DNA from: an uncultured Planctomycetales bacterium
GTDB taxonomy: Bacteria > Omnitrophota > Gorgyraeia > Gygaellales > Profunditerraquicolaceae
DNA: 64,000 nucleotides
Direction: 5' to 3'
Assembly (NCBI GenBank): GCA_964545575.1
Contig: CAZJFL010000001.1
Location: 294,178-358,177, forward strand
Of this stretch, positions 39,001-58,202 are shown one piece after another (within the stretch, counting starts at the first letter, position 1; the number at the start of each line of letters is the position of its first letter). Below the pieces are notes generated by a model. That model made no database searches and was not told the DNA's origin. It was given only the letters and a program-made list of their open reading frames with translations. The position numbers were made by a program, and so were the translations under genes.

Positions 39001-40859
39001 ACCACGTGCTTCCGGCACCGATTGCGCTATCCACTAATAGCGGCACTACCTTAACCGGCTGGCCGGCAGAGATCGCGCCCCCGACCCCACCGATAAAGGA
39101 ACCGGCAAACTCTCCCAAGCTCCGGGAGAAACTGTTACGGTTCGTCCATTCTTCGCGGTCTTCTTCGCTTAAATCCATCCATGTCGGCCGGCCATTTACG
39201 CTCTTATACTTAGGAAGCGCAGACTTTCTGTTCAAAAAATTTTCATAATCCTTATAATCTATACCCAAGCCGGCTATTTTCCCCAGAGATGAAGATACAA
39301 ACTGTACTTCTTTAATTGGGGCGGCGAGCCCGCGCCAAAAATCAGAGGAATTCCCTTTAGGCACAATCCCTACGAGTGCGCCGTCCTTCTTCCCCCAATA
39401 CCTGGTAAGCCCTGCTGAAGAAATAAAGCCGGAGGTTAAGCCATACGATAAAAAATCCGCGGTAAAGTTAGCTGTCTCAAGGGCAAGTTCAGGATTCTTT
39501 TTATAGAAAGCAGAGTCCTTTATTGACAGGTAAGCTATATATCTGGCTCCTGCTTTAAGTGCGCCCATTCCTAACCCTACCTGTAAACCCCGCGTAAAGG
39601 ACGATTGAGCGTTCCAAACGGCATCTTTAATGTGCATAAATTGCTTTGGCTCTATTTTGGTTGTGACGCCGTAAGAAAAAGCTGTAGTTGCCAGTGTGCT
39701 GATGGCTTGGACGAGCCCCGGATTCATTCCTGTTTTGGATAACCCATAAGTTGCTATCGTGCCTAATTGGCCGGTAAACTGCGCAACCGCTAAATCAGTG
39801 ATTCCTCCGCTGCAAATACCGGGTATAGCAGTTAACACCGTCATCCCTAAGTTGATTGCCGTTGCCCTCAAGTCTGGCTGTTGGAAAAGCGGGCTTAAAT
39901 CCGGGTACTTGCCTCTGTATCTCCTTGCCCCTAAAATAAGTTTGGCTTCACTATCAGCGATGGCGGTTAAGCCGACCGCCTCTTTTTTCTCGCTTAAAAT
40001 ATATCCGGAAAATCCTTCAAGGAACTTCTCGCTGGGCAGGAATTCTTCTTTATGCTCATCAATAAAATAAACCTTATCTCCAGAAATGCGGGCAACTAAG
40101 ACATAGTGATCGCCTTTTAAGTGGGCGATAAAAGGGACTGTCCCCGACAAGTCTATTAGTGTGTTATTCTTAGGGGACTGTCCCTGATTGAAGTCTATTT
40201 TTGCCGGGTAGAGTTTGTGGCCAAAGAATGCTGAAGCTTGAGATAAGGCAAATAATGAGTTTTTAATCACTTCCGGGTTACCTTCAGGCTTGACTACCCC
40301 GTTTAAAATATCCACGGTTAAGGCTAAAACCGCGATATCCTGCTCGGCTACCTGCGCGCCGGCATAAGTTAAATAATCATATAGCGCTTTTGTGCCGCAG
40401 GGCCTGCCTTTTAACCATTCGTAAATCTCATCTATTCGCTGCTTGCTGATGTTTAAGGGCTTTTCTAATTTTAAGGTGAGTTCCGGAGATAACCTGATAG
40501 CATTGACGGACTTACCGGAAATATCTTTAAGGATGTTCCTCACCGCCAGCGGAATGTCCAAACTGCGGGTATCTTTAAGATAGGCCGGGGCAAAAGTATT
40601 GAGTGTACCAACCGCAGGCCTCTGCCAGAGCACGCGCCAGTCATATTCTACTGCTTGAGCTACCTGCTGAGGAATAAAAATAGCCACTACTACAAAGGCT
40701 ACTACCCTGATCCAGGCCTTAAAGTTGGAGTGAAAATGCGGCTTCTCGTTCTTTCCCGTAAAAGAACTTACAGCAGAATCAGAAACCTCTACGGCTTCTC
40801 CGATCCTGCTTCCGCGGGATATTTCTTCTAATTTTTCTGTACGGGTTGCTTTTTCCATT
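1..40859 (-). CDS. Giant multidomain, multi-TM protein. The 3' end is outside the window. There are 13,589 or more codons in one frame from 40768 to 2, plus a 46-codon N-terminal ORF (40859..40722) in the adjacent frame, implying a frameshift or indel near 40720-40745.
   Basis: All plus-strand ORFs in 1-40.8 kb are short low-complexity antisense shadows. No complete minus-strand ORF of 60 aa or more is listed, so the coding frame has no stop before the window edge. I checked frame phase (codon top coordinate mod 3 = 1) at 40195, 35992, 16222, 8659, 2611 and 4, and all agree. ATG 40859 follows the upstream gene stop (40862) but hits TAA at 40719-40721. The long frame opens after a TAA at 40769-40771, and the two frames read together give a sensible N-terminus followed by a TM helix. 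The translated protein has recognisable motifs of several enzyme families (listed as separate features). Confidence 0.8.
1300..2640 (-). other. SecA-like DEAD-type motor (NBD) module of the giant protein
   Basis: Translation KDFAGTKSTVILPGLAYLVVKRQNLKVFAVVCNDHFAYDQGKRAAE...DVIYGQISTFNFDYQKLDLL...RWVIMADEADRTLVAEAFTPHIISQ...ILTLVGNRGVNILL lines up with four SecA blocks. These are SecA [77 protein letters not shown] and TNMAGRGTDI. I verified the DEAD block on the DNA (2180-2260). Confidence 0.65.
5280..5790 (-). other. Phosphodiester-glycosidase (NAGPA/DUF2233)-like module of the giant protein
   Basis: Translation ...AKSLVGVDQRGNLVLVSTDADNLTYGKLFGGFPTTTQMADFMIKEFNVRNAWFVDCGISGYFYIKGK resembles the family C-terminal block (...aIGid.dGrLllvvvDG...G.tl.ElA.lm..lGa.dAlNLDGGGSs). 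It matches at motif level only. Confidence 0.4.
7630..7690. repeat. Dispersed internal repeat, copy 1 (its partner is at 9743-9803)
   Basis: ggagctttgcctaataaagtagcgactaacaaggcatcgccgataatcgctgcccaga nearly matches 9743-9803 (ggagctttacctaataaagtagcgactaacaaggcaccgccgataatcgctgcccaga). Both encode WAAIIG.ALLVATLLGKAP in TM-rich parts of the giant protein, which suggests a duplicated membrane module. Confidence 0.8.
8190..8660 (-). other. Class I SAM-dependent methyltransferase-like module of the giant protein
   Basis: Motif I reads EEPMRILDIGAGKGYALFY (hh[DE]hGxGxG). Downstream lies FHFAMSVRTFEYLIDQLRALEEVHRVLAADGEARINW (post-I/II/III-like). The frame checks at 8659. Confidence 0.55.
9743..9803. 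repeat. Dispersed internal repeat, copy 2 (its partner is at 7630-7690)
   Basis: See the 7630-7690 feature. Confidence 0.8.
15690..16100 (-). other. Site-2-protease / peptidase M50-like membrane module of the giant protein, with an atypical HExxxH spacing
   Basis: Translation ...GIIGASVLGHELAGHGLVARIFGRKTSGVELGVLGG...LVYAAGPLVSLGLMAAGLAL...NLFTTVNLGMAVFNLLPLKPLDGGTIF. Compare RseP/SpoIVFB-type HEFGHfwvARrcG and the NLLPipvLDGG motif. I read the DNA codon by codon: cac gaa tta gcc ggg cat gives HELAGH, one residue longer than the canonical HExxH. Confidence 0.6.
19229..19756. repeat. Tandem duplication of about 264 bp (2 copies, roughly 90% identical) inside the giant ORF, encoding a duplicated coiled-coil segment
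   Basis: gccaaaatcttctgatta...ttcttccaccggcctgattaacgcctgcgcact...gcgggct(g/a)cttccagct...gcaaagcttccttctgct recurs with a period of about 264 bp (copy starts near 19231 and 19495). Both copies are in frame and translate to ...QSEILLAQARKQKEALL..LEAARREKQDILD.E..VLAD..SAQALIRPVEEKI.RIE..LKE.NQKILA.E. Confidence 0.8.
35850..35995 (-). other. Peptidoglycan-binding (PG_binding_1-like) module of the giant protein
   Basis: Translation LTARQIQASLNKAGFYPYLPDGIKGSLTKKAITDFQSANGLKPDGIVGPKTWGAL fits the PG_binding_1 consensus (L...GY.....DG.FG..T..A...FQ...GL..DG.vGp.Tw..L). Confidence 0.65.
40090..40420 (-). other. Peptidase C39-like (bacteriocin-processing / papain-like) domain of the giant protein
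   Basis: Translation reads ...RPCGTKALYDYLTYAG...(about 90 aa)...GDHYVLVARISGDKVYFIDEHKE. This matches the C39 Cys motif (CG.A.L..YYG-like) and the His-box (HYVV..I.gdkvyI.DP-like) in the right order and spacing. A TM helix lies just before it. Confidence 0.5.
40134..40184. repeat. Palindrome pair gggactgtcccc (40134-40145) and ggggactgtccc (40173-40184), in frame inside the giant ORF 5' region
   Basis: The element gggactgtccccgacaRgtct.ttattag.gt.tt.ttaggggactgtccctg is nearly identical at 42755-42806. Here it encodes ...QGQSPKNNTLIDLSGTVPF.... Confidence 0.85.
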
Positions 40860-40861
40860 TT

Positions 40862-41353
40862 TTATCTGTTTAAGTGCCCTATTTTGCCAATCTGTTTAAT
40901 CTCAATAACCGTACTCTTCATCGACTTATTTGCAGAAGTACGTTGTAAAGCGCTATTCGCGCGGTTTGAAGTAACTTTAGAAAACGCCCTTTCTCTATGC
41001 TTGCTCATACCCAGGTTAGTCTTTAAGGGGGCCTTTACTTCTTTTAAAAACGATCTTTGATTTATCTTTTTGATTGTAGGAACGCCGATTTTTTTATTCA
41101 ATTTTGGTATTTTGGCCCCAGCCGGAGGCTTAGCAGGCCTAATAATATTATACGGCCTCTCAAGTGGGTTAAAATCGCCGGGCCTTCTACTTGGCCTTTG
41201 GTGATCGCGCCATTGGTAACCGGCGCCTCCTATGCCTTTGACAATTGTAAATGCCGCCTTACCATTATTATTATTCATTCTAGCTCTTTCTGTCGGCCCC
41301 ATTATTCCAAAAACTCCAATCGCTGCTATCGCTATTATTACAAATATGCCCAT
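40862..41353 (-). CDS. Hypothetical basic protein with an N-terminal TM helix (163 aa). Its stop is 3 nt from the giant-gene ATG.
   Basis: It is an ORF-track ORF with the N-terminus MGIFVIIAIAAIGVFGIMG. It lies in an operon between the 393-aa gene and the giant gene and overlaps the upstream gene by 16 nt. Confidence 0.55.
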   Translation of the reverse strand: MGIFVIIAIAAIGVFGIMGPTERARMNNNNGKAAFTIVKGIGGAGYQWRDHQRPSRRPGDFNPLERPYNIIRPAKPPAGAKIPKLNKKIGVPTIKKINQRSFLKEVKAPLKTNLGMSKHRERAFSKVTSNRANSALQRTSANKSMKSTVIEIKQIGKIGHLNR

Positions 41354-42453
41354 TTCGCCCTCTCATTCCGCCTATTTAAGGCTTCAATTTTTACTTCTGG
41401 CTGGTTAACCGCTGCCTTTTTGTCCTCTATAAAACAAAAAAGGCCACAATTTTCTTGTGACCATCCAAGTTTGTACCCTGATTTTGCCTCTCTTTTCCCC
41501 TGATGGACGTATGCGAGGAGACATCCGTCCATCTGACTTATGTTAGGCGAACGCGCTCCAAAGATAACGCCGATACCGTTCTTTAACCTGCGTGAAATTT
41601 CACTGATAATCTGGCTTATTCTTCTTTTAGATGAAACCGGGAAATGTCCAAACAGGCCTAAAATCAAGGGCGCGGAAAAAGGACCATCTAAAACTCCGTG
41701 ATGATGCCCTGAATTATTGCTATTGGTGTTGCCGGTATTACTGCCGGTAGGTTGACTTATGGGATTGTTCGGAATTGAAGGCGCTACCGGTAAAACCGGC
41801 TGTCTTTCCCTTGAAGGAACTAGGGGGGGGATAGCCGGGCCGCGCATAGGAAGCCTGGCCGAATAATTCTGCTTGGGAATAAGTTTAAGCGCTCGCGCCT
41901 GTTTAAGATTAAGCGCGACTGGTTGCTTTAGCGCCGGAGTAAGCGTATTTATTTTACCCGAAGTAACTTTTATAATGGGAACTAAAGGAATGGTTGTTTT
42001 GGGAACAGCTAGATTCGGATTTGTTTTAAGCGCCTTGGGAGTAAAGCTATTTAATTTCGGAACTAACGGAACAGCTGTCTTGAAATTATTAATCTTGGCG
42101 ATAGGTATAACTGTAATGCGATTATTCAGTTTCGGGAAACTAGGCGCAATGGTTTTAATCGTGGGGGCACTGACTTTTATTTTTGGCACTAAAGGAGCAA
42201 AAGACTTGGCGGGTGCGATCCTTGTCGCAGGGGCAGTCAGAGATGGGATAACATTGAAATTATTGCCTCGCGAAGATCTACTAATGCTTTTTTGGTGACG
42301 GCTGTTTAATTGCAGGGTTTTGCTTTCGGCATAAAGAGGAGCAGCCGAGAAGATTGTCGCTATAATTAACAATAGAGCTATTTTTATAATATTAGCTCTA
42401 AACAATATTTCCCCCTTACCCCCATTTTTATAAGCTTTATTTTGGCTCTTCAT
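41338..42453 (-). CDS. Secreted Pro/Lys-rich repeat protein. The ORF track starts at TTG 42519, but the likely start is ATG 42453 (MKSQNK..., signal peptide IIKIALLLIIATIFSAAPLYA).
   Basis: It carries degenerate 11-aa repeats (APLVPKIKVS / AVPLVPKLNS / TIPLVPIIKV ...). The antisense plus-strand ORF 41873..42298 is its shadow. It is the first gene downstream of riboswitch A. Confidence 0.55.
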   Translation of the reverse strand: MKSQNKAYKNGGKGEILFRANIIKIALLLIIATIFSAAPLYAESKTLQLNSRHQKSISRSSRGNNFNVIPSLTAPATRIAPAKSFAPLVPKIKVSAPTIKTIAPSFPKLNNRITVIPIAKINNFKTAVPLVPKLNSFTPKALKTNPNLAVPKTTIPLVPIIKVTSGKINTLTPALKQPVALNLKQARALKLIPKQNYSARLPMRGPAIPPLVPSRERQPVLPVAPSIPNNPISQPTGSNTGNTNSNNSGHHHGVLDGPFSAPLILGLFGHFPVSSKRRISQIISEISRRLKNGIGVIFGARSPNISQMDGCLLAYVHQGKREAKSGYKLGWSQENCGLFCFIEDKKAAVNQPEVKIEALNRRNERAKWAYL

Positions 42454-42496: not shown

Positions 42497-42628
42497 TTAA
42501 AAGAAAACCGGATTATCAAATACTCGATTTCGCATCGGTATTCGGTAACCCGGCTGTCTTTAAAAATCCCTTTTAAGACCCGTGGCTTTGTGCCCCCACC
42601 TCACGGTGGGTTTACCCTTTCGTCCCGT
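42497..42628 (-). promoter_or_regulatory. c-di-GMP-I (GEMM)-like riboswitch A in the 5' leader of the giant-gene operon. The aptamer is about 42538-42628. The terminator-like platform is about 42497-42550.
   Basis: The minus-strand transcript reads ACGAAAGGGUAAACC-CACC GUGA GGUG-GGGGCACAAAGCCACGGG-UCUUAAAAGGGAUUUUUAAAGAC-AGCCGGGUUACCGAAUACC. Compare the Vibrio Vc2 GEMM GGGCAAACC / GNRA hairpin / GGGACGCAAAGCC / P2 / GCGGGGUUACCGA. The conserved 3' strand CCGGGUUA can instead pair with UAAUCCGG, which is followed by UUUUCUUUU (a putative terminator). Confidence 0.6.
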
Positions 42629-42650: not shown

Positions 42651-42679
42651 AGTATAATATATAGAAGGTGGCTTGTCAA
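42651..42679 (-). promoter_or_regulatory. Sigma70-like promoter for the giant-gene operon. The -35 TTGACA is at 42674-42679, followed by a 17-nt spacer and a -10 TATACT at 42651-42656.
   Basis: I read the reverse complement base by base. The TSS would fall near 42643, about 15 nt before the aptamer. Confidence 0.5.
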
Positions 42680-42754
42680 GCATATTTTTATAGTTAAAAG
42701 GGAGCGTTTTCTTATCGCTGATCCGGGGTGTTTTATGCCTGCTAAAACCACTTA

Positions 42755-42804
42755 GGGACTGTCCCCGACAGGTCTCTTATTAGCTGTTCTTAGGGGACTG
42801 TCCC
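42755..42804. repeat. Palindrome pair gggactgtcccc (42755-42766) and ggggactgtccc (42793-42804). Degenerate extra copies ggggacagaccc and ggggacaatccc lie at 42862-42894.
   Basis: Direct reading. It sits about 75 bp upstream (on the minus strand) of the operon -35. Confidence 0.85.
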
Positions 42805-42885
42805 TGTTTTAGTCTCTATTTTAGGGTCAGCCCCCTTAGGAAGATAAGTAATGGCTCTGACGGGGACAGACCCTTCATTTACGGG

Positions 42886-42933
42886 GACAATCCCTTACAG
42901 ATTGGACATTTTTAAGCTTGCAGAGTGGACATT
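42886..42933. repeat. Recurrent intergenic module aatccct-tacag-attggacattttt, plus a second agtggacatttaa copy
   Basis: The 15-mer cagattggacatttt is shared with 57571-57586. A similar aatccctccattatggacatttt is at 56206-56229. Confidence 0.7.
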
Positions 42934-43008: not shown

Positions 43009-43311
43009 TCATTTATATGTATCTTCCCCTCTTTTTCTTAGGACAAATACCCAGATTATCTTCTGCGTTTCATCTACATCATATAAAACGCGATAATCGT
43101 CAATACGGAGTCGATATTGGGCAGTATACTGCACTAATTTAAGCGGCGGGGTAAGTTTTTTAAAAATATTCTTACCTTGCGGATAAGGATTTTCTGCGAG
43201 TCCTGCGGTAGCATCCATAATTGCATCTTGAACTTTACGAGGAAGTTTTACCAGCGCCTTATGGAATTTGTCTTCGAGAGAACGCGTTGGGAATAAAAGG
43301 CGGTATTTCAT
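43009..43311 (-). CDS. Type II toxin, RelE/ParE family (100 aa)
   Basis: The C-terminal block YRLRIDDYRVLYDVDETQKIIWVFVLRKRGEDTYK fits RelE/ParE. It overlaps the upstream antitoxin gene by 4 nt. Confidence 0.75.
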   Translation of the reverse strand: MKYRLLFPTRSLEDKFHKALVKLPRKVQDAIMDATAGLAENPYPQGKNIFKKLTPPLKLVQYTAQYRLRIDDYRVLYDVDETQKIIWVFVLRKRGEDTYK

Positions 43312-43601
43312 TTACGTGCCTTACGGGCTCTTGAGAACAGACGTAGTACAGATACGCCTTCTTTTTTCGCTTTGATTGCCTTTCGACCTTCTTCTACAGC
43401 TTTCAATGTCTCTAAATCCGTAGCTTCATCAATCAGATCGACCATCTCAATAGCTTCCGTATAAGGAATAACTACATCAACAGGAACCCCGCGTTCAGTA
43501 ATAATAAGGGGGTTACCGCCTTTTAAGAGTCTGGATAGGCGTGCTTTAAATTGTCTTATGCCTATGTGCGGTGCCTTTAATAGAATTGTCGCGAGAGTCA
43601 T
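43308..43601 (-). CDS. Phd/YefM-type antitoxin (97 aa)
   Basis: ...PLIITERGVPVDVVIPYTEAIEMVDLIDE... resembles Phd/YefM. A strong RBS AAGGAGG precedes the ATG. It pairs with the downstream RelE-like gene. Confidence 0.7.
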   Translation of the reverse strand: MTLATILLKAPHIGIRQFKARLSRLLKGGNPLIITERGVPVDVVIPYTEAIEMVDLIDEATDLETLKAVEEGRKAIKAKKEGVSVLRLFSRARKARK

Positions 43602-49024: not shown

Positions 49025-50467
49025 TTACTTCCTCGTCTTATTGGACCAATCCATATCTATGGTCCGGTTACTGTAAAGCCAGTCTATGCTCGACGTAGGC
49101 CTATCTGGACGCAGCAGATACCCTCCGTCGCTCACTTGATTAAGGTAGTGGATCTGCCTCACTGTGGCCTGGTTCAGATAAACGCTGTCCCTGGTTTGAA
49201 TCTGCTGCAGGAGCTCTCTTTTGCTTAAAGTCTCGGTTTTATTAGTTGTGGTAAGCAAATCCGGGCTTAAGCCCATTGCTTTAGCTTTATATGTGTGGCG
49301 GAAGATTTCCTCTATCACCGGAAAATCAAAGGTGTCATAGCGGACTGTGCCTTCATGGTACCTCACGTAGTCTCCGCAATACCAGGCGCCGCCATAATGA
49401 TCATTATAGTATTGCTCCCGTTGCTCGTTAGGGCGGTTAGTGCTCTCAATACATATTTCATCGCAACGCGTCAAATTCTCCGCCTCCGTTTGTCCTAACA
49501 TTCTAGCCTTGTTGCACTCATCGAAACAGAACTGCCTATCCACGATCATCCGGCACTGCGCGGTCAGGGAATCCTTATCTATAATCTCTGCGGCTGTAGT
49601 ATCGAGTATATATATGGGAAAGGTGTAGTCAAGACACCGCCAACCCCAAGGACCACGGAGACAGCTTCCCGGAGGATAATTTCTGGCCTCCTCAAAAGAT
49701 GTTAAAGTGCAATTGTCGCCTCCAATACTTATACCTACCAACTCCTTCCAGCATTCCGCACAGACACCATTCTGCCTTGGGCCTTTACACCAATAATAGT
49801 TATTAGCGGAAGGATTAGCCCCTAAGTCCATCATAGCATATCCGGTATACGGCTGAAAAAAATTACATTCTGCATTGCCTTGTGGAGCTGGCTCCCACCC
49901 GATATTCCTGCAATCACTACATTTGCGGTAATTTCTGTTCGCCAGGTCCGGCTCCAGATCGTCCCACCAGACATTGCTTGCTCCGTATATCTCCTCGTAT
50001 TTTTCGTACTGGCGCTCGTTGACATCGCGCTCCGTCCTGAAGGCCTGAGTCTTAAAGGATTGGGTAGAATAGCCGGCCGGGCTGCCCGGCTGATATTTAC
50101 CGTCGGAGACGTGGATATCCATCCGGTTTAATTCCAGCGCGTTTTCCGGATTCTCGTATAACCGGTGCGAACGTATCGGGCTGGTTGCTGAACTGGCAAC
50201 CGGGAAAATCTGCCCGATTCCTGTAGGGCTGGAAGGGTCAGGTACGTGTATATCTTTAATCATTATACTGGAAACGCTGGAGGGCTTATTGTCTTGTGCC
50301 GAATATTCCGCATCATAAAGCGCCTGCCTGAAAACCCGCCAGCTGACTTGATGCTGAAAATTATACCTTAAGCCATAATTTATCAAAACACCCAGAAGCA
50401 TGATTAAAAGCGAGCCGAAAATTGCCAGCTCCAATAATGACTGGGCTTTATTATTTACCTTATTCAT
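49025..50467 (-). CDS. TadE/TadF-like pseudopilin with a large Cys-rich C-terminal domain of about 17 Cys (480 aa)
   Basis: The N-terminus MNKVNNKAQSLLELAIFGSLLIMLLGVLINYG is a prepilin-like leader plus hydrophobic helix. The C-terminal 380 aa are rich in C, W, Y, N and G. Confidence 0.6.
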   Translation of the reverse strand: MNKVNNKAQSLLELAIFGSLLIMLLGVLINYGLRYNFQHQVSWRVFRQALYDAEYSAQDNKPSSVSSIMIKDIHVPDPSSPTGIGQIFPVASSATSPIRSHRLYENPENALELNRMDIHVSDGKYQPGSPAGYSTQSFKTQAFRTERDVNERQYEKYEEIYGASNVWWDDLEPDLANRNYRKCSDCRNIGWEPAPQGNAECNFFQPYTGYAMMDLGANPSANNYYWCKGPRQNGVCAECWKELVGISIGGDNCTLTSFEEARNYPPGSCLRGPWGWRCLDYTFPIYILDTTAAEIIDKDSLTAQCRMIVDRQFCFDECNKARMLGQTEAENLTRCDEICIESTNRPNEQREQYYNDHYGGAWYCGDYVRYHEGTVRYDTFDFPVIEEIFRHTYKAKAMGLSPDLLTTTNKTETLSKRELLQQIQTRDSVYLNQATVRQIHYLNQVSDGGYLLRPDRPTSSIDWLYSNRTIDMDWSNKTRK

Positions 50468-50855
50468 CGAAAAGTGATGACCCCAATTTTCTCACGTTTT
50501 CATTGCCGCTGGTATTGGTCCATCCTTTATTAAGTATGCTGTTTGTTTCGGTAGCAAATACATCTGTATCGTCAAAATCTCCATCGTCATTAAAGTCAAT
50601 TTGCGTGCCGTGCGCTTCATTATATGCCTTCTCGCTCCAAGTTATTACCGTATCTGTCGTGTTGCTATAGGAATAAACTACAGATGAGCCGGTAGTCTTT
50701 TTCGGGGCATACTGCTCACCCAATTCATCGGCCAGCTGCCTGAACCTGCCCTGCATGCCGCGCTTAAGATAGACTGCCATTGCTATTAAAGCAGCTACGA
50801 TGCAGGTAATTAACACCGCCACTTCTAAGGTTGTTTGAGCCTTATTCTTTTTCAC
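50460..50855 (-). CDS. flp: Flp-family pilin paralogue 10 (131 aa)
   Basis: MKKNKAQTTLEVAVLITCIVAALIAMAVYLKRGMQGRFR... Confidence 0.65.
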   Translation of the reverse strand: MKKNKAQTTLEVAVLITCIVAALIAMAVYLKRGMQGRFRQLADELGEQYAPKKTTGSSVVYSYSNTTDTVITWSEKAYNEAHGTQIDFNDDGDFDDTDVFATETNSILNKGWTNTSGNENVRKLGSSLFDE

Positions 50856-51198
50856 TCCACATCCCCTGAGAAAGAATTCCCTCTTTTTTAAACCGCTCGT
50901 CTCTTTCAGTCGTTACCCTTCCTTCTAAGTCTTTATTTATCTTTTTATAAGGAACCTGGTGTTCATCCACCGTAGTACTTATATTTGAATAACCTTTCAT
51001 TTTCCAGAGAAGGTCGTAATCAACTTCTACTAAGCCCTTTTTCTGGTCGCCGATAGCGTCGGCGGCCACCTGCACTACTCCCTGCACGCCGCGCTTCATA
51101 TAGGTCTGCATCCCTATGAGCGCGGCAGTAACAACCGCAATAAGCAAAACATACTCGGACAGACTCTGAGCTCTGCTATTTCTTCTTAGTTTTACCAT
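50842..51198 (-). CDS. flp: Flp-family pilin paralogue 9 (118 aa)
   Basis: ...SRAQSLSEYVLLIAVVTAALIGMQTYMKRGVQGVVQ... Confidence 0.7.
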   Translation of the reverse strand: MVKLRRNSRAQSLSEYVLLIAVVTAALIGMQTYMKRGVQGVVQVAADAIGDQKKGLVEVDYDLLWKMKGYSNISTTVDEHQVPYKKINKDLEGRVTTERDERFKKEGILSQGMWSEKE

Positions 51199-51246
51199 TT
51201 TTGCGCTATTTTGTCTATACCTATATCGCTTAGTTGCCTTGTGACC

Positions 51247-51582
51247 CTACGGTTTAATCCCGCTCAGCGGCTTCCAACTTGCAACATCTTCTGCGCTCTT
51301 TTCTTTTGTTTCACCGCCCGACTGTAAGGTAGACGTAGTTACTCGATTCTGGATTGTCTGCACGCTGGTTGTATCTTTCGTTGTCTCAAAGTCTACCTGA
51401 TTAGAGGTTGCGTTAGCCTCAAATTGCGCTCCGATATCGTCAGTGGACTGGCGCAGTTTTCCCTGCACGCCGCGTTTCATATAAATTTGTATGGCGAATA
51501 ATGCCGCTACCACCACAGCGACAATTATGGCATATTCCAAGGTGCTTTGGCCTTTTTTGTGCATACACATCGCTATACTCAC
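51247..51582 (-). CDS. flp: Flp-family pilin paralogue 8 (111 aa; the likely start is the internal MHKKGQ...)
   Basis: ...MHKKGQSTLEYAIIVAVVVAALFAIQIYMKRGVQGKLRQ... Confidence 0.7.
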   Translation of the reverse strand: MSIAMCMHKKGQSTLEYAIIVAVVVAALFAIQIYMKRGVQGKLRQSTDDIGAQFEANATSNQVDFETTKDTTSVQTIQNRVTTSTLQSGGETKEKSAEDVASWKPLSGIKP

Positions 51583-51600
51583 CTCCTTATTGGCTTATGG

Positions 51601-51915
51601 CTACTGTTGTACCGGTACCTTTACTGTTTGGGCCCCGCTACGCTCTGTCCTCCTATCAAGAGACTGACGGCTGACCGCGCCACCTAATTTGGTCTCATCC
51701 GTCTCGGTGTAGCCTTTTTCAGTATTGGTATAACTAGATTCGAGATAATACGGTTCATACTGGCCCGTGACATTAGCGGCTTTATCTACGGCGTATCTTA
51801 TACCGCCCTGCATACTTCTCTTTAAATACACCTGCATGGCCATAGCCGCCCCAACAACCAAAGCAATCACAATAGCATACTCGGCAGTGCTTTGGGCCCT
51901 TTTATGTCTTAACAT
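51601..51915 (-). CDS. flp: Flp-family pilin paralogue 7 (104 aa)
   Basis: MLRHKRAQSTAEYAIVIALVVGAAMAMQVYLKRSMQGGIR... Confidence 0.7.
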   Translation of the reverse strand: MLRHKRAQSTAEYAIVIALVVGAAMAMQVYLKRSMQGGIRYAVDKAANVTGQYEPYYLESSYTNTEKGYTETDETKLGGAVSRQSLDRRTERSGAQTVKVPVQQ

Positions 51916-51936
51916 TATTGTTCACCTCCTTAGTTA

Positions 51937-52323
51937 TTATTCGTATAGCTTTTCGTCCTTTAAATCCGTATTCACCTTTTCGGCGTCGTTTCCTAAGGCG
52001 CTTCTTTTTACGTCAGCCGGAGTTACTACGTCATATCTAGATGTGCCCACTCCTAGCTCCTGTGTGCCAAATCGTTCCGTTGTAACCTGATCGCCTGTCT
52101 GTGTAGTGGTATATTTGGAAGTCATACGGCCGGCGGAATACTGTTCGCCGATTTTATCTGTGGATTCACGCAGTTTTCCCTGCACGCCGCGGCGCATATA
52201 TATCTGTATGGTCAATAAAGTTCCCACTACTACTGCAATAATCACCGCATATTCCAGAGTGCTTTGTCCCAGCTTATTTTTAGGCATCACTTTATCACCT
52301 CCCTTAATCCCTGCTAAAAACAC
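51937..52323 (-). CDS. flp: Flp-family pilin paralogue 6 (128 aa; the likely start is the internal MPKNKLGQ...)
   Basis: ...MPKNKLGQSTLEYAVIIAVVVGTLLTIQIYMRRGVQGKLRE... Confidence 0.7.
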   Translation of the reverse strand: MFLAGIKGGDKVMPKNKLGQSTLEYAVIIAVVVGTLLTIQIYMRRGVQGKLRESTDKIGEQYSAGRMTSKYTTTQTGDQVTTERFGTQELGVGTSRYDVVTPADVKRSALGNDAEKVNTDLKDEKLYE

Positions 52324-52356
52324 TATCTTAACCGCTCACAAACCTTTGCTTAAGAT

Positions 52357-52767
52357 TTAAGGCGGATTCTGATTTCCCGGCTCACCAAAGCGATATTCCT
52401 GATAATCATCTTTTGCCTGCCTAGTCGTCTGATCAGTAGTACGTGCTACTTTACCTCCCTTGTCCATCTTTGAAGTATCCTTCGAACCGGCTACGGTTGT
52501 CGAAGTTGACACAGCGCTCAGCCCCTCAGGTTCGTACTGATTACTTAGCTCCACGCCCTGCTTAGCGCCAATATCATTCCAATAGTCCTGATGATCTTCA
52601 AGTGCTTTCACAGACTGATCACTTGCATCCTTATATCTACCCTGTATGCCTCTTTTAACATAAGTCTGCATCCCGACTACTGCTGCTATTACTAAGCCGA
52701 TGAGAATCGCGTATTCAGCGGTGCTCTGGGCCTTTTTATTCCTGAATAACCTTAGCATTTTTTTCAC
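52357..52767 (-). CDS. flp: Flp-family pilin paralogue 5 (136 aa)
   Basis: ...NKKAQSTAEYAILIGLVIAAVVGMQTYVKRGIQGRYK... Confidence 0.7.
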   Translation of the reverse strand: MKKMLRLFRNKKAQSTAEYAILIGLVIAAVVGMQTYVKRGIQGRYKDASDQSVKALEDHQDYWNDIGAKQGVELSNQYEPEGLSAVSTSTTVAGSKDTSKMDKGGKVARTTDQTTRQAKDDYQEYRFGEPGNQNPP

Positions 52768-52790
52768 CTCCTTGGCTTTTGGTCGATATT

Positions 52791-52961
52791 TTAGAACTTC
52801 TTCGCTACATTCTGAATCGCAGTATCCGCATCAGTAAGGGTTTTATTTACGGCCGGCTTAATATACTCTTTAGCCGCGAAGAGAATAACCCCGATGATAG
52901 CGGTAATTACCAACACATATTCCAAGATGCTCTGGCCTCTTCCGTATCTTACTCTTGCCAT
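52791..52961 (-). CDS. flp: Flp-family pilin paralogue 4 (56 aa, below the ORF-track cut-off)
   Basis: I derived MARVRYGRGQSILEYVLVITAIIGVILFAAKEYIKPAVNKTLTDADTAIQNVAKKF from the reverse complement. An RBS AAGGAG lies 7 nt upstream of the ATG at 52961. Confidence 0.6.
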   Translation of the reverse strand: MARVRYGRGQSILEYVLVITAIIGVILFAAKEYIKPAVNKTLTDADTAIQNVAKKF

Positions 52962-52987
52962 ATCTTCTCCTTTCCAATCATTCTTCT

Positions 52988-53179
52988 TTATTTTGTCATA
53001 TTCAATATCTCCCCCGAGCTGTCCCCAATTTTTGTCGCTGATTTATTCATTAACTGCCCTACACCGGTGCTACTGGGATCTTGTTTCATAGTGAACACAA
53101 AAGCGGCAACTACACCAACGACTAGCGTCAGAATAATGATGTACTCCAATGTATTCTGCCCTTTCTTCTTTCTTAACAT
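52988..53179 (-). CDS. flp: Flp-family pilin paralogue 3 (63 aa)
   Basis: MLRKKKGQNTLEYIIILTLVVGVVAAFVF.... An RBS GGAGGTGA lies upstream. Confidence 0.7.
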   Translation of the reverse strand: MLRKKKGQNTLEYIIILTLVVGVVAAFVFTMKQDPSSTGVGQLMNKSATKIGDSSGEILNMTK

Positions 53180-53203
53180 GTACTCACCTCCTTATTTTTT
53201 ATA

Positions 53204-53356
53204 CTATGGCCTGACTACTTCTGCGTTAACCTGATCTTCTATAACTTTAAGGTTTGCGTTAAGGCTGCGCTGCACATAGGTGCTCATTGCCATTAGCGCT
53301 GCTACCACTACCGCAATAATCACTGAATATTCCAATACGCTTTGGCCTTTTTTCAT
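53204..53356 (-). CDS. flp: Flp-family pilin paralogue 2 (51 aa, below the ORF-track cut-off)
   Basis: I derived MKKGQSVLEYSVIIAVVVAALMAMSTYVQRSLNANLKVIEDQVNAEVVRP from the reverse complement of 53204-53356. Confidence 0.55.
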   Translation of the reverse strand: MKKGQSVLEYSVIIAVVVAALMAMSTYVQRSLNANLKVIEDQVNAEVVRP

Positions 53357-53359
53357 CTT

Positions 53360-53575
53360 TTACCCCGGATTAATTATGCGAGAGGCGACCCTCCCAAAGA
53401 ATCCCACGGTTAGTCTTGTTCCTTGCAAAGTTCTTTTTACATTTACCAAAAAATTTAATCCCGGGCCTACCGACGCAATTGTTAGGGCTGTAATCACCGC
53501 GAAAAGAACAAAATATTCTATAGCCGCCTGTCCTTTTTTGCCTTTGCGGATTTTTAAAGACTTTATAAAACTCAT
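53360..53575 (-). CDS. flp: Flp-family pilin paralogue 1 (71 aa), the first gene of the tad operon
   Basis: MSFIKSLKIRKGKKGQAAIEYFVLFAVITALTIASVG... shows the Flp G/xxxxEY processing-site motif. Confidence 0.7.
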   Translation of the reverse strand: MSFIKSLKIRKGKKGQAAIEYFVLFAVITALTIASVGPGLNFLVNVKRTLQGTRLTVGFFGRVASRIINPG

Positions 53576-53580
53576 TTCTA

Positions 53581-53745
53581 ATCCTCCAATAAAAAAACCG
53601 TTTTACCAAAATATTTTCGGCTTTCGGTAACCCGGCTTAAAGTCCTCGCTTCCGACCCTAAAGCAGTTTGCATCCAAATTGTTGACGAGCACCGCCGTGG
53701 CTTTTCTCTCCACTTAACCTCCTTAAGTGGATCATCCGTTGCCGT
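53581..53745 (-). promoter_or_regulatory. Candidate c-di-GMP-I (GEMM)-like riboswitch C in the leader of the flp/tad operon. The aptamer is about 53608-53745. The terminator alternative is about 53581-53626.
   Basis: The transcript reads CGGCAACGGAUGAU-CCACUUAA GGAGG UUAAGUGG-AGAGAAAAGCCACGG-(long P2)-GGACUUUAAGCCGGGUUACCGAAAGCC. It shares AAAGCCACGG and GCCGGGUUACCGAA with riboswitch A and with the GEMM 3' consensus GCGGGGUUACCGA. CCGGGUUACC can alternatively pair with GGUAAAACGG, which is followed by UUUUUUU (a terminator). The match is weaker than for A and B, with a pentaloop in place of the GNRA loop. Confidence 0.4.
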
Positions 53746-53799: not shown

Positions 53800-53833
53800 T
53801 GATATTTCGCTACTTTAAGAAACCGCTTTCTTA

Positions 53834-53883
53834 GGGACAGTCCCCTTAGGATTCAATAGCTTAGCTCTGGCGGGGACAGTCCC
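53834..53883. repeat. Palindrome pair gggacagtcccc (53834-53845) and ggggacagtccc (53872-53883), 35 bp upstream of the flp promoter -35
   Basis: Direct reading. The second copy abuts the stop codon of the 773-aa gene. Confidence 0.85.
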
Positions 53884-56204
53884 TACGCTAAGAACCAGAG
53901 CCGCTTGCCCCCGGTGAAAATAATCTCCTTTTCATTCAGCCTGCGGCAGGCGTATTCCAGCGCCTTTAAATACGGATATCCCGCAGGGGGTTGAAAGGTC
54001 ACCAAAAGGCTATCCTCTTGCGCCTCCATCCGGCAGGTTAAGCCATAAAACTGCTCTTTTGCCGTCGGGAAATCCTTATCCTCATAGCCGATAGGCAGGA
54101 GGTGCCAGCGGGCATAGAGATCCAGGGCTTTCAGGTAATAACTGAATATCGCGCTGATATCAAAATCCGCTCCCTTGGGCAATTCCAGGTTCTCCGTCGA
54201 GAAAAAGCGCTGGGAGGTGGCGGTGTAGGTGAACAATTCGACTTTGCGGCTATAATCCTGAAAGGCCTCTTCCAAGTTTGGCCAGCGGTTAAGATAAGTA
54301 GAAGCCAGCTCTTCCAGATTTAATTTTTCCGCGGGGAAATTGCTCAGGATCAAGAGCCGCGCCTTCTCGGCAGGACCGGCCTTTAAGGCACAGCCTCTTA
54401 ATGTAACACTTTTATTTGCATCAGGTTGTATCAAGTCTAATTCTATATTCGCCAGATAAAAGTCCTTTTTTAAAGGCGCGAAATGAAAGGGCTTAAACTC
54501 GCCCAACGTCTTGACCTGACGGTATTCGGCAAACTGCCAGGGCCAGAGGCCAAAGATAAAATGGCGCTTTTTCATCGGGTTTACCCGTATAATTTCTATC
54601 TCTTCAAACCTGTTGCTGTAAAGGCCTAAGCTCATAATCCGCTTTTCATCCCCCTCTAAACCTAAGATAAAATCAAAAAACTCTTTGGTCGGCAAATCAT
54701 AACCCGGAGCCATAAAAAGCACGAAAGGCGCGTCCTCCTGAAAATATCTTTTTACGTAAGTCTTTATATTATAAATAGTTGTGGAAAAATTATAGGGGAT
54801 ATGCACCGTGGACCAGGCTGTATGCAGCTGGCCGTCTAAATAGACTGCTGTGCCGTCGGATAAGTTTACTTTGATCCCACGCACTTCCTGCAAGACACTG
54901 GCAATTGTGCGCAGTATGTCCATTGGCAAGGCTTTAATTGCCTGTAATTCATTCAGATAACCTGACAGCTCTTCAGGGCTGAACCTATAATTTAACAGCG
55001 GCCATAAGCCGTAATCCGGCTTGCTCTGGGCAACGACTGATACTTCAAAGAGGCTATTGTAGATGAAAAACTCAGTTTTGGCTAAAAACTCTTTTTCTTC
55101 GTTTTTCAAGCGGCTGTTGATTACATCAGCAATAAAGCGGCTTCCGCCTAAAAGATAATCCGCGGATTTCAGCAAAATCGCCCCTAAACCCGTAAATGTG
55201 CCTTCAGTTTGGACAATTTTAGCGGCTTTAAGATTAGCTTCCTCTACAGCCCTGGCCTTGGCTTCGGCTTCAGCTGCAGCTTTTCTTTCTGTTTCTACCT
55301 GAGCCTTTAATGCGGCTTCGAACTTTGCCTTTTCTTCTGCTTCCCTGCGGGCTATTTCTTCGGCTAAGCGCTTTTCGCGGGCCTCGACTTCTGCGCGCGC
55401 GCGCTCATCCGCTTCATGCTTGGCCTTGACTTCGGCTTCTGCTTCTTGGCGCGCTTTCTCCTCCGCTTCTATGCGCGCTTTTTCTTCGGCTTCTGCCTTA
55501 GCTTTTAATTCCGCTTCTTCTCTGGCCCTAGCTTCCGCTTCCTCTTTGGCTTTTCTTTCCGCTTTAAGCTTTGCTTTTTCTTCGGCTTCTTTGCGCGCTT
55601 TTTCTTCGGCTTCTGCCTTAGCTTTAGCCTCTGCTTCCTGACGCGCTTTTTCTTCTGCCTCTCGACGAGCCTTCTCTTGCGCCTCAGCTTCGGCTTTGGC
55701 GCGTGCTTCTGCTTCTAGCCGCGCCTGTTCTTCTGCTTTAATTCTGGCTTCTTCCTCGGCCCTGGCTTTTGCCTCGGCTTCGGCCTTTGCCTTTACCTCA
55801 GCTTCAGCTTTCAGCTTCGCTTCTTCTGCTGCCTCGGCTTCGGCTTTAAGCTTGGCTTCCTCTGCTACCCTAACTTCGGCAGAAGGCGGGGGCGCCGGCA
55901 TTTCTATCGGCTTAGTTACTTCTGGCGGAAATTCCAAAACAGGGACAGTCCCCTTCGGGGACAGTCCCTTTTCAATCACACCTTTGAGCTTAAGGGCATA
56001 CTTTCTCTTGGTGCGCCTTCTACCCACCGGCATGCTTAAGCTGTTCTCTTTAAACAAAGCGTTAATGCTGGACTTAGAGACTTTAGCCTGAAACTTAGTT
56101 TCTATCAAGGCGGCCATACTGCGGCAGCTGAGCTTAGGATCGGCTTTTTTGCTCTCCAGAATAAAAGTGACTATTTCCGGTTTTAATTTATAAATTACGC
56201 CCAC
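53883..56204 (-). CDS. 773-aa protein with an N-terminal HTH-like segment, an E/A/K-rich coiled-coil low-complexity region of about 230 aa, and a C-terminal globular domain of about 430 aa. Its GTG start has a strong GGAGGG RBS.
   Basis: It is an ORF-track ORF. The N-terminus reads KPEIVTFILESKKADPKLSCRSMAALIETKFQAKVSKSSINALFKEN (helix-turn-helix-like). The middle reads AEEAKLKAEAEV.AKAEAEAKARAEEEAR.... The C-terminus contains ...STYLNRWPNLEEAFQDYSRKV. It has no TM segment. Confidence 0.7.
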   Translation of the reverse strand: MGVIYKLKPEIVTFILESKKADPKLSCRSMAALIETKFQAKVSKSSINALFKENSLSMPVGRRRTKRKYALKLKGVIEKGLSPKGTVPVLEFPPEVTKPIEMPAPPPSAEVRVAEEAKLKAEAEAAEEAKLKAEAEVKAKAEAEAKARAEEEARIKAEEQARLEAEARAKAEAEAQEKARREAEEKARQEAEAKAKAEAEEKARKEAEEKAKLKAERKAKEEAEARAREEAELKAKAEAEEKARIEAEEKARQEAEAEVKAKHEADERARAEVEAREKRLAEEIARREAEEKAKFEAALKAQVETERKAAAEAEAKARAVEEANLKAAKIVQTEGTFTGLGAILLKSADYLLGGSRFIADVINSRLKNEEKEFLAKTEFFIYNSLFEVSVVAQSKPDYGLWPLLNYRFSPEELSGYLNELQAIKALPMDILRTIASVLQEVRGIKVNLSDGTAVYLDGQLHTAWSTVHIPYNFSTTIYNIKTYVKRYFQEDAPFVLFMAPGYDLPTKEFFDFILGLEGDEKRIMSLGLYSNRFEEIEIIRVNPMKKRHFIFGLWPWQFAEYRQVKTLGEFKPFHFAPLKKDFYLANIELDLIQPDANKSVTLRGCALKAGPAEKARLLILSNFPAEKLNLEELASTYLNRWPNLEEAFQDYSRKVELFTYTATSQRFFSTENLELPKGADFDISAIFSYYLKALDLYARWHLLPIGYEDKDFPTAKEQFYGLTCRMEAQEDSLLVTFQPPAGYPYLKALEYACRRLNEKEIIFTGGKRLWFLA
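55230..55900. repeat. Low-complexity GC-rich repeat tract (gcttcTgcttc / ggcttcggc units) encoding the E/A/K coiled coil
   Basis: The plus-strand ORFs 55420..55641 and 55696..56091 (ASASS.AF...) are antisense shadows of this tract. Confidence 0.8.
55942..55968. repeat. Palindrome pair gggacagtcccc / ggggacagtccc separated by 3 nt, in frame inside the 773-aa gene (it encodes KGLSPKGTVPV)
   Basis: Direct reading. Confidence 0.85.
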
Positions 56205-57593: not shown

Positions 57594-57674
57594 GGGGACA
57601 GTCCCCGCAGGAGGCGGGGCACCAAACCATCCGATAGGTTTGGGTGCCTACTCGTTGCCTAAGGGGACAGTCCC
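57594..57674. repeat. Palindrome pair ggggacagtcccc (57594-57606) and ggggacagtccc (57663-57674) flanking a hairpin ggcaccaaacc/ggtttgggtgcc. It lies 35 bp upstream of the riboswitch-B promoter -35.
   Basis: Direct reading. Confidence 0.85.
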
Positions 57675-57709
57675 TGTTCAACAAAAAAGCTAAAAAAGGG
57701 GTGTGTAAG

Positions 57710-57738: not shown

Positions 57739-57779
57739 TTATATGTAAAGAATATAGTTCTTTCAGAATAAAGGGAAGA

Positions 57780-57926
57780 CGATAAAGGTAAACTATCCGA
57801 AAGGATGGGGCGCAAAGCTATAGAGCCTAATCTCCGCGTAAGCGCGGGGCATGGCAGTCAGTTGCCGAAATCAAGATACGAAATGCTATAAGCCCATTCT
57901 AATAGGATAGAGTGGGCTTTTTTATT
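57780..57926 (+). promoter_or_regulatory. c-di-GMP-I (GEMM)-like riboswitch B with an intrinsic terminator, upstream of the RHH and adhesin genes
   Basis: AAAGGUAAAC-UAUCC GAAA GGAUG-GGGCGCAAAGC-UAUAGAGCCUAAUCUCCGCGUAAGCGCGG-GGCAUGGCAGUCAGUUGCCGAAAUC, compared with Vc2 CAGGGCAAAC-CAUUC GAAA GAGUG-GGACGCAAAGCC-...-GGUAGGUAGCGGGGUUACCGAUGG. The GNRA tetraloop hairpin, the GCGCAAAGC block, the GCC-UAA block and the 3' receptor-like region are all in the right order. Confidence 0.6.
57891..57926 (+). terminator. Rho-independent terminator (11-bp stem agcccattcta/tagagtgggct with one G-U pair, a 6-nt loop, then TTTTTTATT)
   Basis: Direct reading. It lies between the aptamer and the RBS AGGAG of the next gene, consistent with being the riboswitch expression platform. 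Confidence 0.7.
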
Positions 57927-57938
57927 AGGAGAAATAAA

Positions 57939-58202
57939 ATGACTAAATTAAGGACAGTCACTTTTTTGACGCGGGAGCAAATTGATTTTCTGGATAAATT
58001 AGGAAAGGACGCATTGTTTTATAAAGGCTCAAAGCTTTCGCGCGCGCATATCCTTGCCGAGCTGGTCGATTTATTAATGGAGCTAGGAATCGACGTGAAG
58101 CAGATAGACTTAGCCCATGGTCACTTAGCAGGCGAAATATTAAAGGCAATGAACAACGGGCATAATGGGCAGGAGAAAAATGAAGAAACACATTTTCACT
58201 AA
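57939..58202 (+). CDS. Small putative ribbon-helix-helix-like DNA-binding protein (87 aa from ATG 57939; the ORF track starts at 57912)
   Basis: An RBS AGGAG lies 8 nt upstream. The N-terminus reads KLRTVTFLTREQIDFLDKL...SRAHILAELVDLLMELG, a beta-strand followed by two helices as in RHH/CopG-like proteins. The assignment is tentative. Confidence 0.45.
   Translation: MTKLRTVTFLTREQIDFLDKLGKDALFYKGSKLSRAHILAELVDLLMELGIDVKQIDLAHGHLAGEILKAMNNGHNGQEKNEETHFH

Follow-up and report, generated by a model that had tools for sequence, protein, structure and literature searches.

A 64,000-nucleotide (nt) stretch of Omnitrophota DNA (contig CAZJFL010000001.1 of assembly GCA_964545575.1, positions 294,178 to 358,177; hereafter the window) carries on its minus strand, upstream of a giant open reading frame (ORF), an RNA leader at 42628-42497 (GGGACGAAAGGGUAAACCCACCGUGAGGUGGGGGCACAAAGCCACGGGUCUUAAAAGGGAUUUUUAAAGACAGCCGGGUUACCGAAUACCGAUGCGAAAUCGAGUAUUUGAUAAUCCGGUUUUCUUUU). 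Judging from its sequence, this leader is very probably a canonical class-I cyclic di-GMP (c-di-GMP) riboswitch that acts as a transcriptional ON switch of the giant-gene operon. In the mechanism envisaged, transcription would start from a strong near-consensus promoter about 19 nt 5' of the aptamer. If c-di-GMP is absent, pairing of the aptamer's 3' strand (GCCGGGUUACCGA) with the downstream sequence UCGAGUAUUUGAUAAUCCGG would create a long hairpin followed by UUUUCUUUU, and RNA polymerase would terminate about 95 nt short of the first gene, ORF1. With c-di-GMP bound between the equivalents of G20, A47 and C92, the same 3' strand would be kept in the second stem (P2) and the short closing stem (P1) of the aptamer, the terminator would not form, and transcription would proceed into ORF1, ORF2 and the >40-kb gene.

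Two matches were returned when the entire window was scanned with cmscan against the 4227 families of Rfam 15 at gathering thresholds, namely RF03167 (c-di-GMP-I-GGC) at 42540-42625 on the minus strand and RF01051 at 57777-57869 on the plus strand. The minus-strand match covers the model in full (positions 1-80 of 80) and scores 65.9 bits against a gathering threshold of 59, with an E-value of 2.4e-13 for the whole window and of 2.2e-15 when the scan is confined to 600 nt. A covariance model of our own, described below, scores the same aptamer at 90.8 bits, and the 161-nt leader folds better than its shuffled versions (z of -5.2), with none of 200 shuffles being equally good. The leader and its aptamer, first noticed from the letters alone in a first-pass annotation that had named a significant covariance-model match as the test to run, are confirmed far beyond chance. 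The hallmarks of GEMM RNAs listed in that annotation, GGGUAAACC, the hairpin CACC-GUGA-GGUG, GGGGCACAAAGCC and AGCCGGGUUACCGA, are found on the minus strand where it had placed them, and the span that it gave, 42497-42628, is exactly that of aptamer plus terminator. The P1a stem-loop of the window aptamer reads CCCACC-GUGA-GGUGGG at 42610-42595.

The family that the annotation had expected was RF01051, and here only part of the expectation held: the clan is c-di-GMP-I (Rfam CL00126), with its member RF03167 above the curated threshold in the window, but the top score belongs to RF03167 and not to RF01051. That RF01051 passes at this site, where lower-scoring clan members are hidden in the output, is deduced from the numbers of clan matches left out. 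One such match was left out of the window scan and eight were left out of the scan of homologues, equal in each case to the number of RF03167-labelled matches, which implies that RF01051 would exceed its threshold at every one of them too. As an RNA, the element is an unexceptional representative of the c-di-GMP-I class, which is already known.

The 3' end of the aptamer doubles as one arm of an intrinsic terminator at 42499-42554 (minus strand; -24.4 kcal/mol), which is indicated by the minimum-energy fold and by conserved pairing. The stem consists of GCCGGGUUA(C)CGAAUACCGAU and AUCGAGUAUUUGAUAAUCCGG(U) at 42554-42508, with a core in which CCGGGUUA (42553-42546) is paired with UAAUCCGG (42515-42508), and the U-tract UUUUCUUUU follows at 42507-42499. 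The 5' arm (42554-42540) begins 14 nt inside the aptamer and is made up of the 3' strand of P2, the C92 equivalent and the 3' strand of P1. In the minimum-energy fold of the leader, P1a is retained and P2 is replaced by the long hairpin at 42554-42508; this terminator-containing fold is calculated at -53.4 kcal/mol, versus -36.2 kcal/mol for the leader with the aptamer pairs enforced. The mutually exclusive terminator suggested by the first-pass annotation is real, being both the favoured fold without ligand and conserved, with compensatory changes, in 72 of 74 homologous aptamers. Because the terminator fold is favoured, the default state would be termination, and the aptamer would need to be stabilised during transcription. 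The ON-switch logic follows from the fact that the 5' arm of the terminator is the aptamer's own 3' strand.

Conservation before giant genes was assessed in a comparison set of 80 loci from species-representative genomes, nearly all Omnitrophota, that were retrieved by alignment of the N-terminal region of the giant protein. With Rfam, ten of 11 homologous loci have an aptamer of the c-di-GMP-I clan 5' of the gene and on the same strand, eight of which are labelled RF03167 and two RF01051. Our own covariance model was built from 12 sequences with the Rfam architecture; the RNAalifold structure of the first 12-sequence alignment was rejected, as it paired GGY with the 3' RCC and not in the accepted two-pair helix at the base of P1a. 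This model identifies 74 aptamers in total. An aptamer is present in 71 of the 80 loci, or 71 of the 77 that have at least 250 nt of upstream sequence, and in 69 of 75 distinct assemblies. The association has exceptions, as six loci lack an aptamer even when searched with filters off. The distance from the end of the aptamer to the giant start codon is 100-200 nt in most loci; other ORFs intervene in the window and in L007, L008, L036 and L063, and in the closest relatives, L007 and L008, the aptamer is likewise followed by an ORF1 homologue and then by the giant gene. In one locus, L086, a second aptamer (3023-3115, plus strand; 65.9 bits with our model) lies about 2.6 kb 5' of the aptamer preceding the giant gene.

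In the alignment of the 74 sequences, two adjacent stem-loops (P1a and P2) are closed by a short P1. Standard pairs occupy 98.3% of cells, versus 28-45% when the partners are slid, and both partners have changed in 11 of the 21 pairs (198 cells), among them every one of the six P1a pairs, with none of 500 shuffles reaching as high a value. Covariation in homologues is what the annotation had asked for, and the signal is strong; it does not amount to formal statistics, the alignment having been fitted to the model and the shuffles, like the Fisher test given below, taking no account of relatedness. The overlapping terminator is conserved as well. Of the 74 sequences, 70 have a hairpin with a U-tract that overlaps the aptamer, and in 69 of the 74 it starts 10-26 nt inside the aptamer's 3' end; a first terminator scan, limited to 75 nt, had missed the overlaps in L007, L014, L068 and the second aptamer of the window, and was followed by a re-analysis based on alignment columns. 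Tracking by column shows that 72 of 74 sequences have aptamer columns 197-210 paired with sequence further downstream, with compensatory exchanges in the terminator helix of U-A (39) versus C-G (17) at one position and of G-C (64) versus A-U (5) at another. The C92 equivalent is bulged out of the conserved helix. Upstream, a promoter of the form TTGACA-N16-18-TATACT is found 20-30 nt 5' of the aptamer, matching at 11 of 12 positions, in 63 of 72 loci, with shuffled controls mostly matching at 7-8.

The ligand pocket is best described in the numbering of the Vibrio cholerae Vc2 aptamer, which was transferred by aligning the Vc2 sequence to the Rfam consensus. In Vc2, c-di-GMP is contacted by G20, A47 and C92, and C44 and G83 form an inter-helical pair (PMC4744006, PMC6140456). 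Each of these nucleotides has its equivalent on the minus strand of the window: G20 at 42616 (G in 72 of 74 homologues), A47 at 42589 (A in 74 of 74), C92 at 42545 (C in 73 of 74), C44 at 42592 (C in 73 of 74) and G83 at 42554 (G in 74 of 74).

This pattern bears directly on the question of whether the element is a member of the c-di-GMP-I-GGC variant class, with a ligand different from c-di-GMP. The variant would account for the fact that RF03167 has the best clan score above gathering both in the window and in eight of ten homologues, and the two share a short P2, an A-rich loop and a near-identical 3' strand, AGCCGGGYUGCCGAA. The two families differ in consensus at the A47 equivalent, with GACGCGAAgCc (an upper-case G) in RF03167 versus GACGCAAAgCc in RF01051. 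'GGC', the name of a variant defined by Weinberg et al. 2017 (PNAS), presumably denotes the bases at 20, 47 and 92, as judged from these two consensus lines; there is no discussion of the variant in the NAR 2017 paper. At this very position the conserved G of RF03167 is replaced by A in the window (CACAAAGCC), leaving a blank in the match line, and by A in all 74 homologues, a pattern that does not fit membership of the variant class despite a score above threshold. The high RF03167 score stems from features shared outside the pocket, namely the short P2, the A-rich loop and the strings CCACGGGUC and AGCCGGGYUGCCGAA, and RF01051 is implied to score above threshold at the same sites. A variant ligand is therefore very unlikely. 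Since the pocket positions are the canonical G20, A47 and C92, the 'GGC' label on the window aptamer is misleading, an artefact of competition within the clan. The same label falls on canonical G20/A47/C92 aptamers of this lineage, in the window and in eight of ten loci tested, with scores of 61-70 bits against the threshold of 59; the two homologous aptamers labelled RF01051 score 61.8 and 57.8 bits (threshold 35). Automated annotation could thus report a variant riboswitch in this lineage though the defining nucleotide is absent from its aptamers.

Position 20 likewise addresses the GEMM-Ib group, typified by Gs1761 of Geobacter, whose members sense 3'3'-cyclic GMP-AMP (cGAMP). The fold is identical, the Rfam clan is shared and natural members can bind both ligands, so that either a cGAMP riboswitch or a dual-ligand binder might be considered; however, cGAMP-selective members have A20 (PMC6140456). 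The base is G in the window and in 72 of the 74 homologues, which speaks against membership of GEMM-Ib and makes a cGAMP-responsive element highly improbable, the canonical c-di-GMP aptamer being the better description.

The peripheral architecture differs from that of Vc2. P2 is short, and the A-rich loop that caps it (4-61 nt) is mostly unstructured; the P2 and 3' strands are near-identical to those of RF03167, and no classical 11-nt tetraloop receptor is present in P2 in the 74-sequence alignment. Of the 74 sequences, 72 have a GNRA tetraloop on P1a (GUGA in the window). The third base of this tetraloop is correlated with one pair of P2, GNAA occurring with C-G and GNGA with U-A in 64 of 72 sequences (Fisher p 8e-10, uncorrected for relatedness). 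Such a pattern is expected under the Costa-Michel rule for docking of a tetraloop into a simple helical receptor, and it fits a receptor-less 'type 2' group of GEMM RNAs. In this family the P1a loop may dock into a plain helical receptor in P2 with which it covaries.

A further possibility is that the aptamer has decayed into a constitutive attenuator or leader that no longer senses a ligand. A neighbouring leader at 53622-53741 (minus strand), 5' of the first Flp-type pilin gene (53575-53360, minus strand), looks like such a decayed copy, scoring 14.9 bits (E 0.02) with our model and having lost the P1a junction. In the case of the giant-gene leader, however, ligand-contact and tertiary-contact nucleotides are all intact, purifying selection over 69 genomes is strong, and compensatory changes are found in every helix, making decay extremely improbable and leaving a functional c-di-GMP riboswitch as the preferred interpretation. 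The pilin leader itself has a promoter (TTGACA-17-TATATT, about 53796-53768) and a terminator with a U7 tract; the base of P2 is kept (AAAGCCACGG ... AGCCGGGUUACCGAAA), and the GGYAAAC/GGCRC P1a junction is replaced by a hairpin with a GGAGG loop. It has no Rfam c-di-GMP match, and only its 3' strand and terminator resemble those of the other aptamers. For these reasons it was not counted as a third riboswitch; decay of a former copy would explain it, as would a variant of a kind not yet described.

Downstream of the switch, the first gene is ORF1 (41338-42405, minus strand; 355 aa), which begins with a TTG codon after AAGGGGG, has a signal-peptide-like N-terminus and is proline-rich; the same 355-aa gene is called independently on a public contig. 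It is followed by ORF2 (40862-41353, minus strand; 163 aa), which has a hydrophobic N-terminal segment and whose exact sequence is found on metagenome contigs in ENA, JGI and Logan. No Pfam family was found in either. By tblastn, homologues of ORF1 were found only in L007 and L008, and none of ORF2. The giant ORF (2-40858, minus strand) is stop-free for at least 13,619 codons and is cut by the edge of the window. Pfam domains in its product include Peptidase_C39 (aa 195-292), PG_binding_1 (around aa 1620), Peptidase_M50 (around aa 8270), NAGPA and methyltransferase domains, and SecA_DEAD with SecA_PP_bind (about aa 12,780-13,000). The N-terminal 700 residues have 55 homologues, nearly all of them named as C39-domain proteins of Candidatus Omnitrophota/Omnitrophica and nearly all partial. 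By its sequence features, namely a very long single ORF, an N-terminal C39 peptidase, a SecA DEAD-like domain and Omnitrophota homologues, the gene is assigned to the 'Archaeovorin' type.

The transcription unit appears to be self-contained. The sigma-70 promoter at 42651-42679 (minus strand) has TTGACA (42679-42674) and TATACT (42656-42651) separated by a 17-nt spacer, an 11 of 12 match, and would initiate at about 42644, giving the order promoter, aptamer, overlapping terminator and ORF1; the arrangement recurs in 70-72 of 74 homologues. The preceding genes are closed by a strong terminator at 42994-42960, so the riboswitch unit would be transcribed independently. The placement of a near-consensus promoter directly before an ON riboswitch suggests that initiation is largely constitutive, with the decision to make the long transcript taken at the terminator. 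Between the upstream Tad genes and this promoter lie a 97-aa antitoxin-like gene and a 100-aa ParE-family toxin gene (about 43009-43601, minus strand), whose positions were converted from gene calls on the identical public contig, L001.

The claim in the first-pass annotation that the riboswitch directly controls the giant-gene operon stands as far as the operon is concerned and needs amending in one respect, as the giant ORF is the third gene, after ORF1 and ORF2. Control might accordingly extend to ORF1 and ORF2 only in this genome, with the giant gene under a promoter of its own: 1.55 kb and two ORFs separate switch and giant gene, and the 3' part of ORF1 contains a terminator-like hairpin, GGUCACAAGAAAAUUGUGGCC followed by UUUUUUGUUU, at 41462-41442 (minus strand), with weak promoter-like sites at 41296-41267 and 41101-41073. 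The hairpin may have arisen by chance, or it may lower transcription into ORF2 and the giant gene, and together with the promoter-like sites it could uncouple the giant gene from the switch. Yet ORF1 and ORF2 overlap by 16 nt and the ORF2 stop lies 3 nt before the giant ATG, and the internal sites are weak (9 of 12 matches) and at the level of chance, with 5.5 promoter-like sites and 3.7 terminator-like ones occurring in shuffled sequences. The comparison points the same way: the aptamer lies directly before the giant gene in most of the 71 loci, and in L007 and L008 an ORF1 homologue stands, as here, between aptamer and giant gene. A switch restricted to ORF1 and ORF2 is thus unlikely, and control of the giant gene by the riboswitch agrees with the tight gene packing in the window. 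These internal signals nevertheless weigh against the ON-switch interpretation, as do the window copy of P1, which has only about 2 bp, the top Rfam label, which is that of the GGC variant family, and the fitted alignment and uncorrected statistics behind the covariation. It must be added that we infer from the sequence that the RNA binds its ligand, that the switch works in the ON direction in vivo and that transcription continues as far as the giant gene.

Several known systems offer points of comparison. Vc2 is reported to act as an OFF switch on tfoY, as opposed to the ON logic predicted for the window element through its terminator. The two have in common adjacent stem-loops, a GNRA loop on the first of these, G20/A47/C92, the C44-G83 pair and a location in the 5' untranslated region (UTR); the P2 of the window element is short with an A-rich loop and without the 11-nt receptor. 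ON-type switches are a closer match in logic. Bc2 of Bacillus thuringiensis, for instance, is of the ON type and precedes a collagen-adhesin gene. The Vc1 riboswitch before gbpA of V. cholerae is likewise an ON-type c-di-GMP riboswitch on an adhesin/colonisation gene (PMC4744006). As in these cases, a GEMM-I element in the 5' UTR is here predicted to switch on a gene for a secreted or surface protein in response to c-di-GMP. The target differs, being a multi-domain Archaeovorin-type ORF of at least 13,619 codons whose product is predicted to span the membrane, and the unit of promoter, aptamer and terminator is here conserved throughout a set of uncultivated species.

With the described Archaeovorins (West-Roberts et al. 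2023, bioRxiv 10.1101/2023.11.21.568195), the giant protein has in common its N-terminal C39 domain and its SecA DEAD-like domain, and, as in those cases, pilins with class III signal peptides are encoded nearby in a Tad/type II secretion locus. In that work, pilZ is reported 3' of giant genes, and certain Archaeovorins are reported to contain GGDEF domains, which makes a c-di-GMP circuit plausible around those genes. In the present case, with Pfam, no GGDEF, EAL or PilZ domain was found in the 13,619 residues visible here or in the other proteins scanned.

The window holds further features of possible interest. The second Rfam match, at 57777-57869 (plus strand), is a full-length c-di-GMP-I aptamer (RF01051, 70 bits). 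About 20 nt past it a hairpin with a U-tract begins (AAGCCCAUUCUA...UAGAGUGGGCUUU, then UUUAUU), and downstream lies an ORF (58153-63999, plus strand) of at least 1949 aa that runs off the window and has an N-terminal two-partner secretion (TPS, haemagglutinin-type) domain. Upstream of the riboswitch unit, about ten short Flp-type pilin paralogues (50460-53575, minus strand) have the Flp/class III signal-peptide motif K/R-G-Q-S-x-L-E-Y followed by a hydrophobic helix, with repeated DNA segments (families D4-D6 and D10) between the genes. A TadG-like protein and two TadB/C (T2SSF) genes are encoded 3' of this cluster on the same strand.

A palindrome, GGGGACAGTCCCC, occurs in 28 copies with at most two mismatches, versus 2.7 expected, all between 40.1 and 58.3 kb and mostly paired. 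The clusters are at 40133-40185, 42754-42895, 53833-53884, 55941-55969 and 57594-57675, and lie, among other places, 75-230 nt 5' of the riboswitch promoter, 5' of the pilin-leader promoter and 100-180 nt 5' of the second aptamer. A 58-nt unit of two palindromes is common to 40133-40191 and 42754-42811. One pair is inside the C39 domain of the giant gene, where the two copies are read in different frames (QGQSP, SGTVP), indicating selection on DNA or RNA. At least ten other species have similar pairs in the part of the giant gene that encodes the N-terminus. As to the role of the palindrome, a regulator binding site and a repetitive extragenic palindromic (REP)-like element are both possibilities. 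Elsewhere, a 24-nt DNA period at 55200-55860, in at least 12 overlapping copies (families D1-D3), lies inside a 773-aa ORF (53883-56204, minus strand) that has no Pfam match, and presumably encodes an 8-residue repeat.

With regard to novelty, the word 'riboswitch' is absent from West-Roberts et al. 2023 (10.1101/2023.11.21.568195) and from a 2026 preprint on complete Omnitrophota genomes. A search of the full-text literature for Omnitrophota or Omnitrophica together with riboswitch returned only unrelated ComFB papers. The conserved link between a riboswitch and the giant genes is newly noticed, whereas the RNA class and ON-type adhesin riboswitches were already known.

The giant genes of Omnitrophota, some of which exceed 30,000 codons, are a recent puzzle, both in the timing of their expression and in the control of so costly a transcript, in organisms that are almost all uncultivated. 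A conserved riboswitch would provide a concrete regulatory input that can be addressed in vitro, by binding and termination assays on synthetic RNA and DNA, and read out in metatranscriptomes as the ratio of reads on the two sides of the terminator. As a mechanism this is textbook; the value lies in making the regulation of the largest bacterial genes testable in vitro. The giant proteins would also be tied to a second messenger by which attachment is controlled in other bacteria, in keeping with their proposed role in adhesion to prey and with the pilZ and GGDEF elements described near or inside such genes, and the switch may have a sessile or adhesive meaning. A bolder and tentative interpretation, possible rather than probable, is that the near-constitutive promoter and c-di-GMP ON riboswitch form the main gate on Archaeovorin expression across Omnitrophota and, together with the adhesin behind the second aptamer, the apparently decayed pilin leader, GGDEF and pilZ, make up a switch that, by positive feedback, commits the cell to attaching to host cells and preying on them. 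If this were so, expression of the largest known bacterial genes would become predictable, and testable in vitro, for organisms that are uncultivated.

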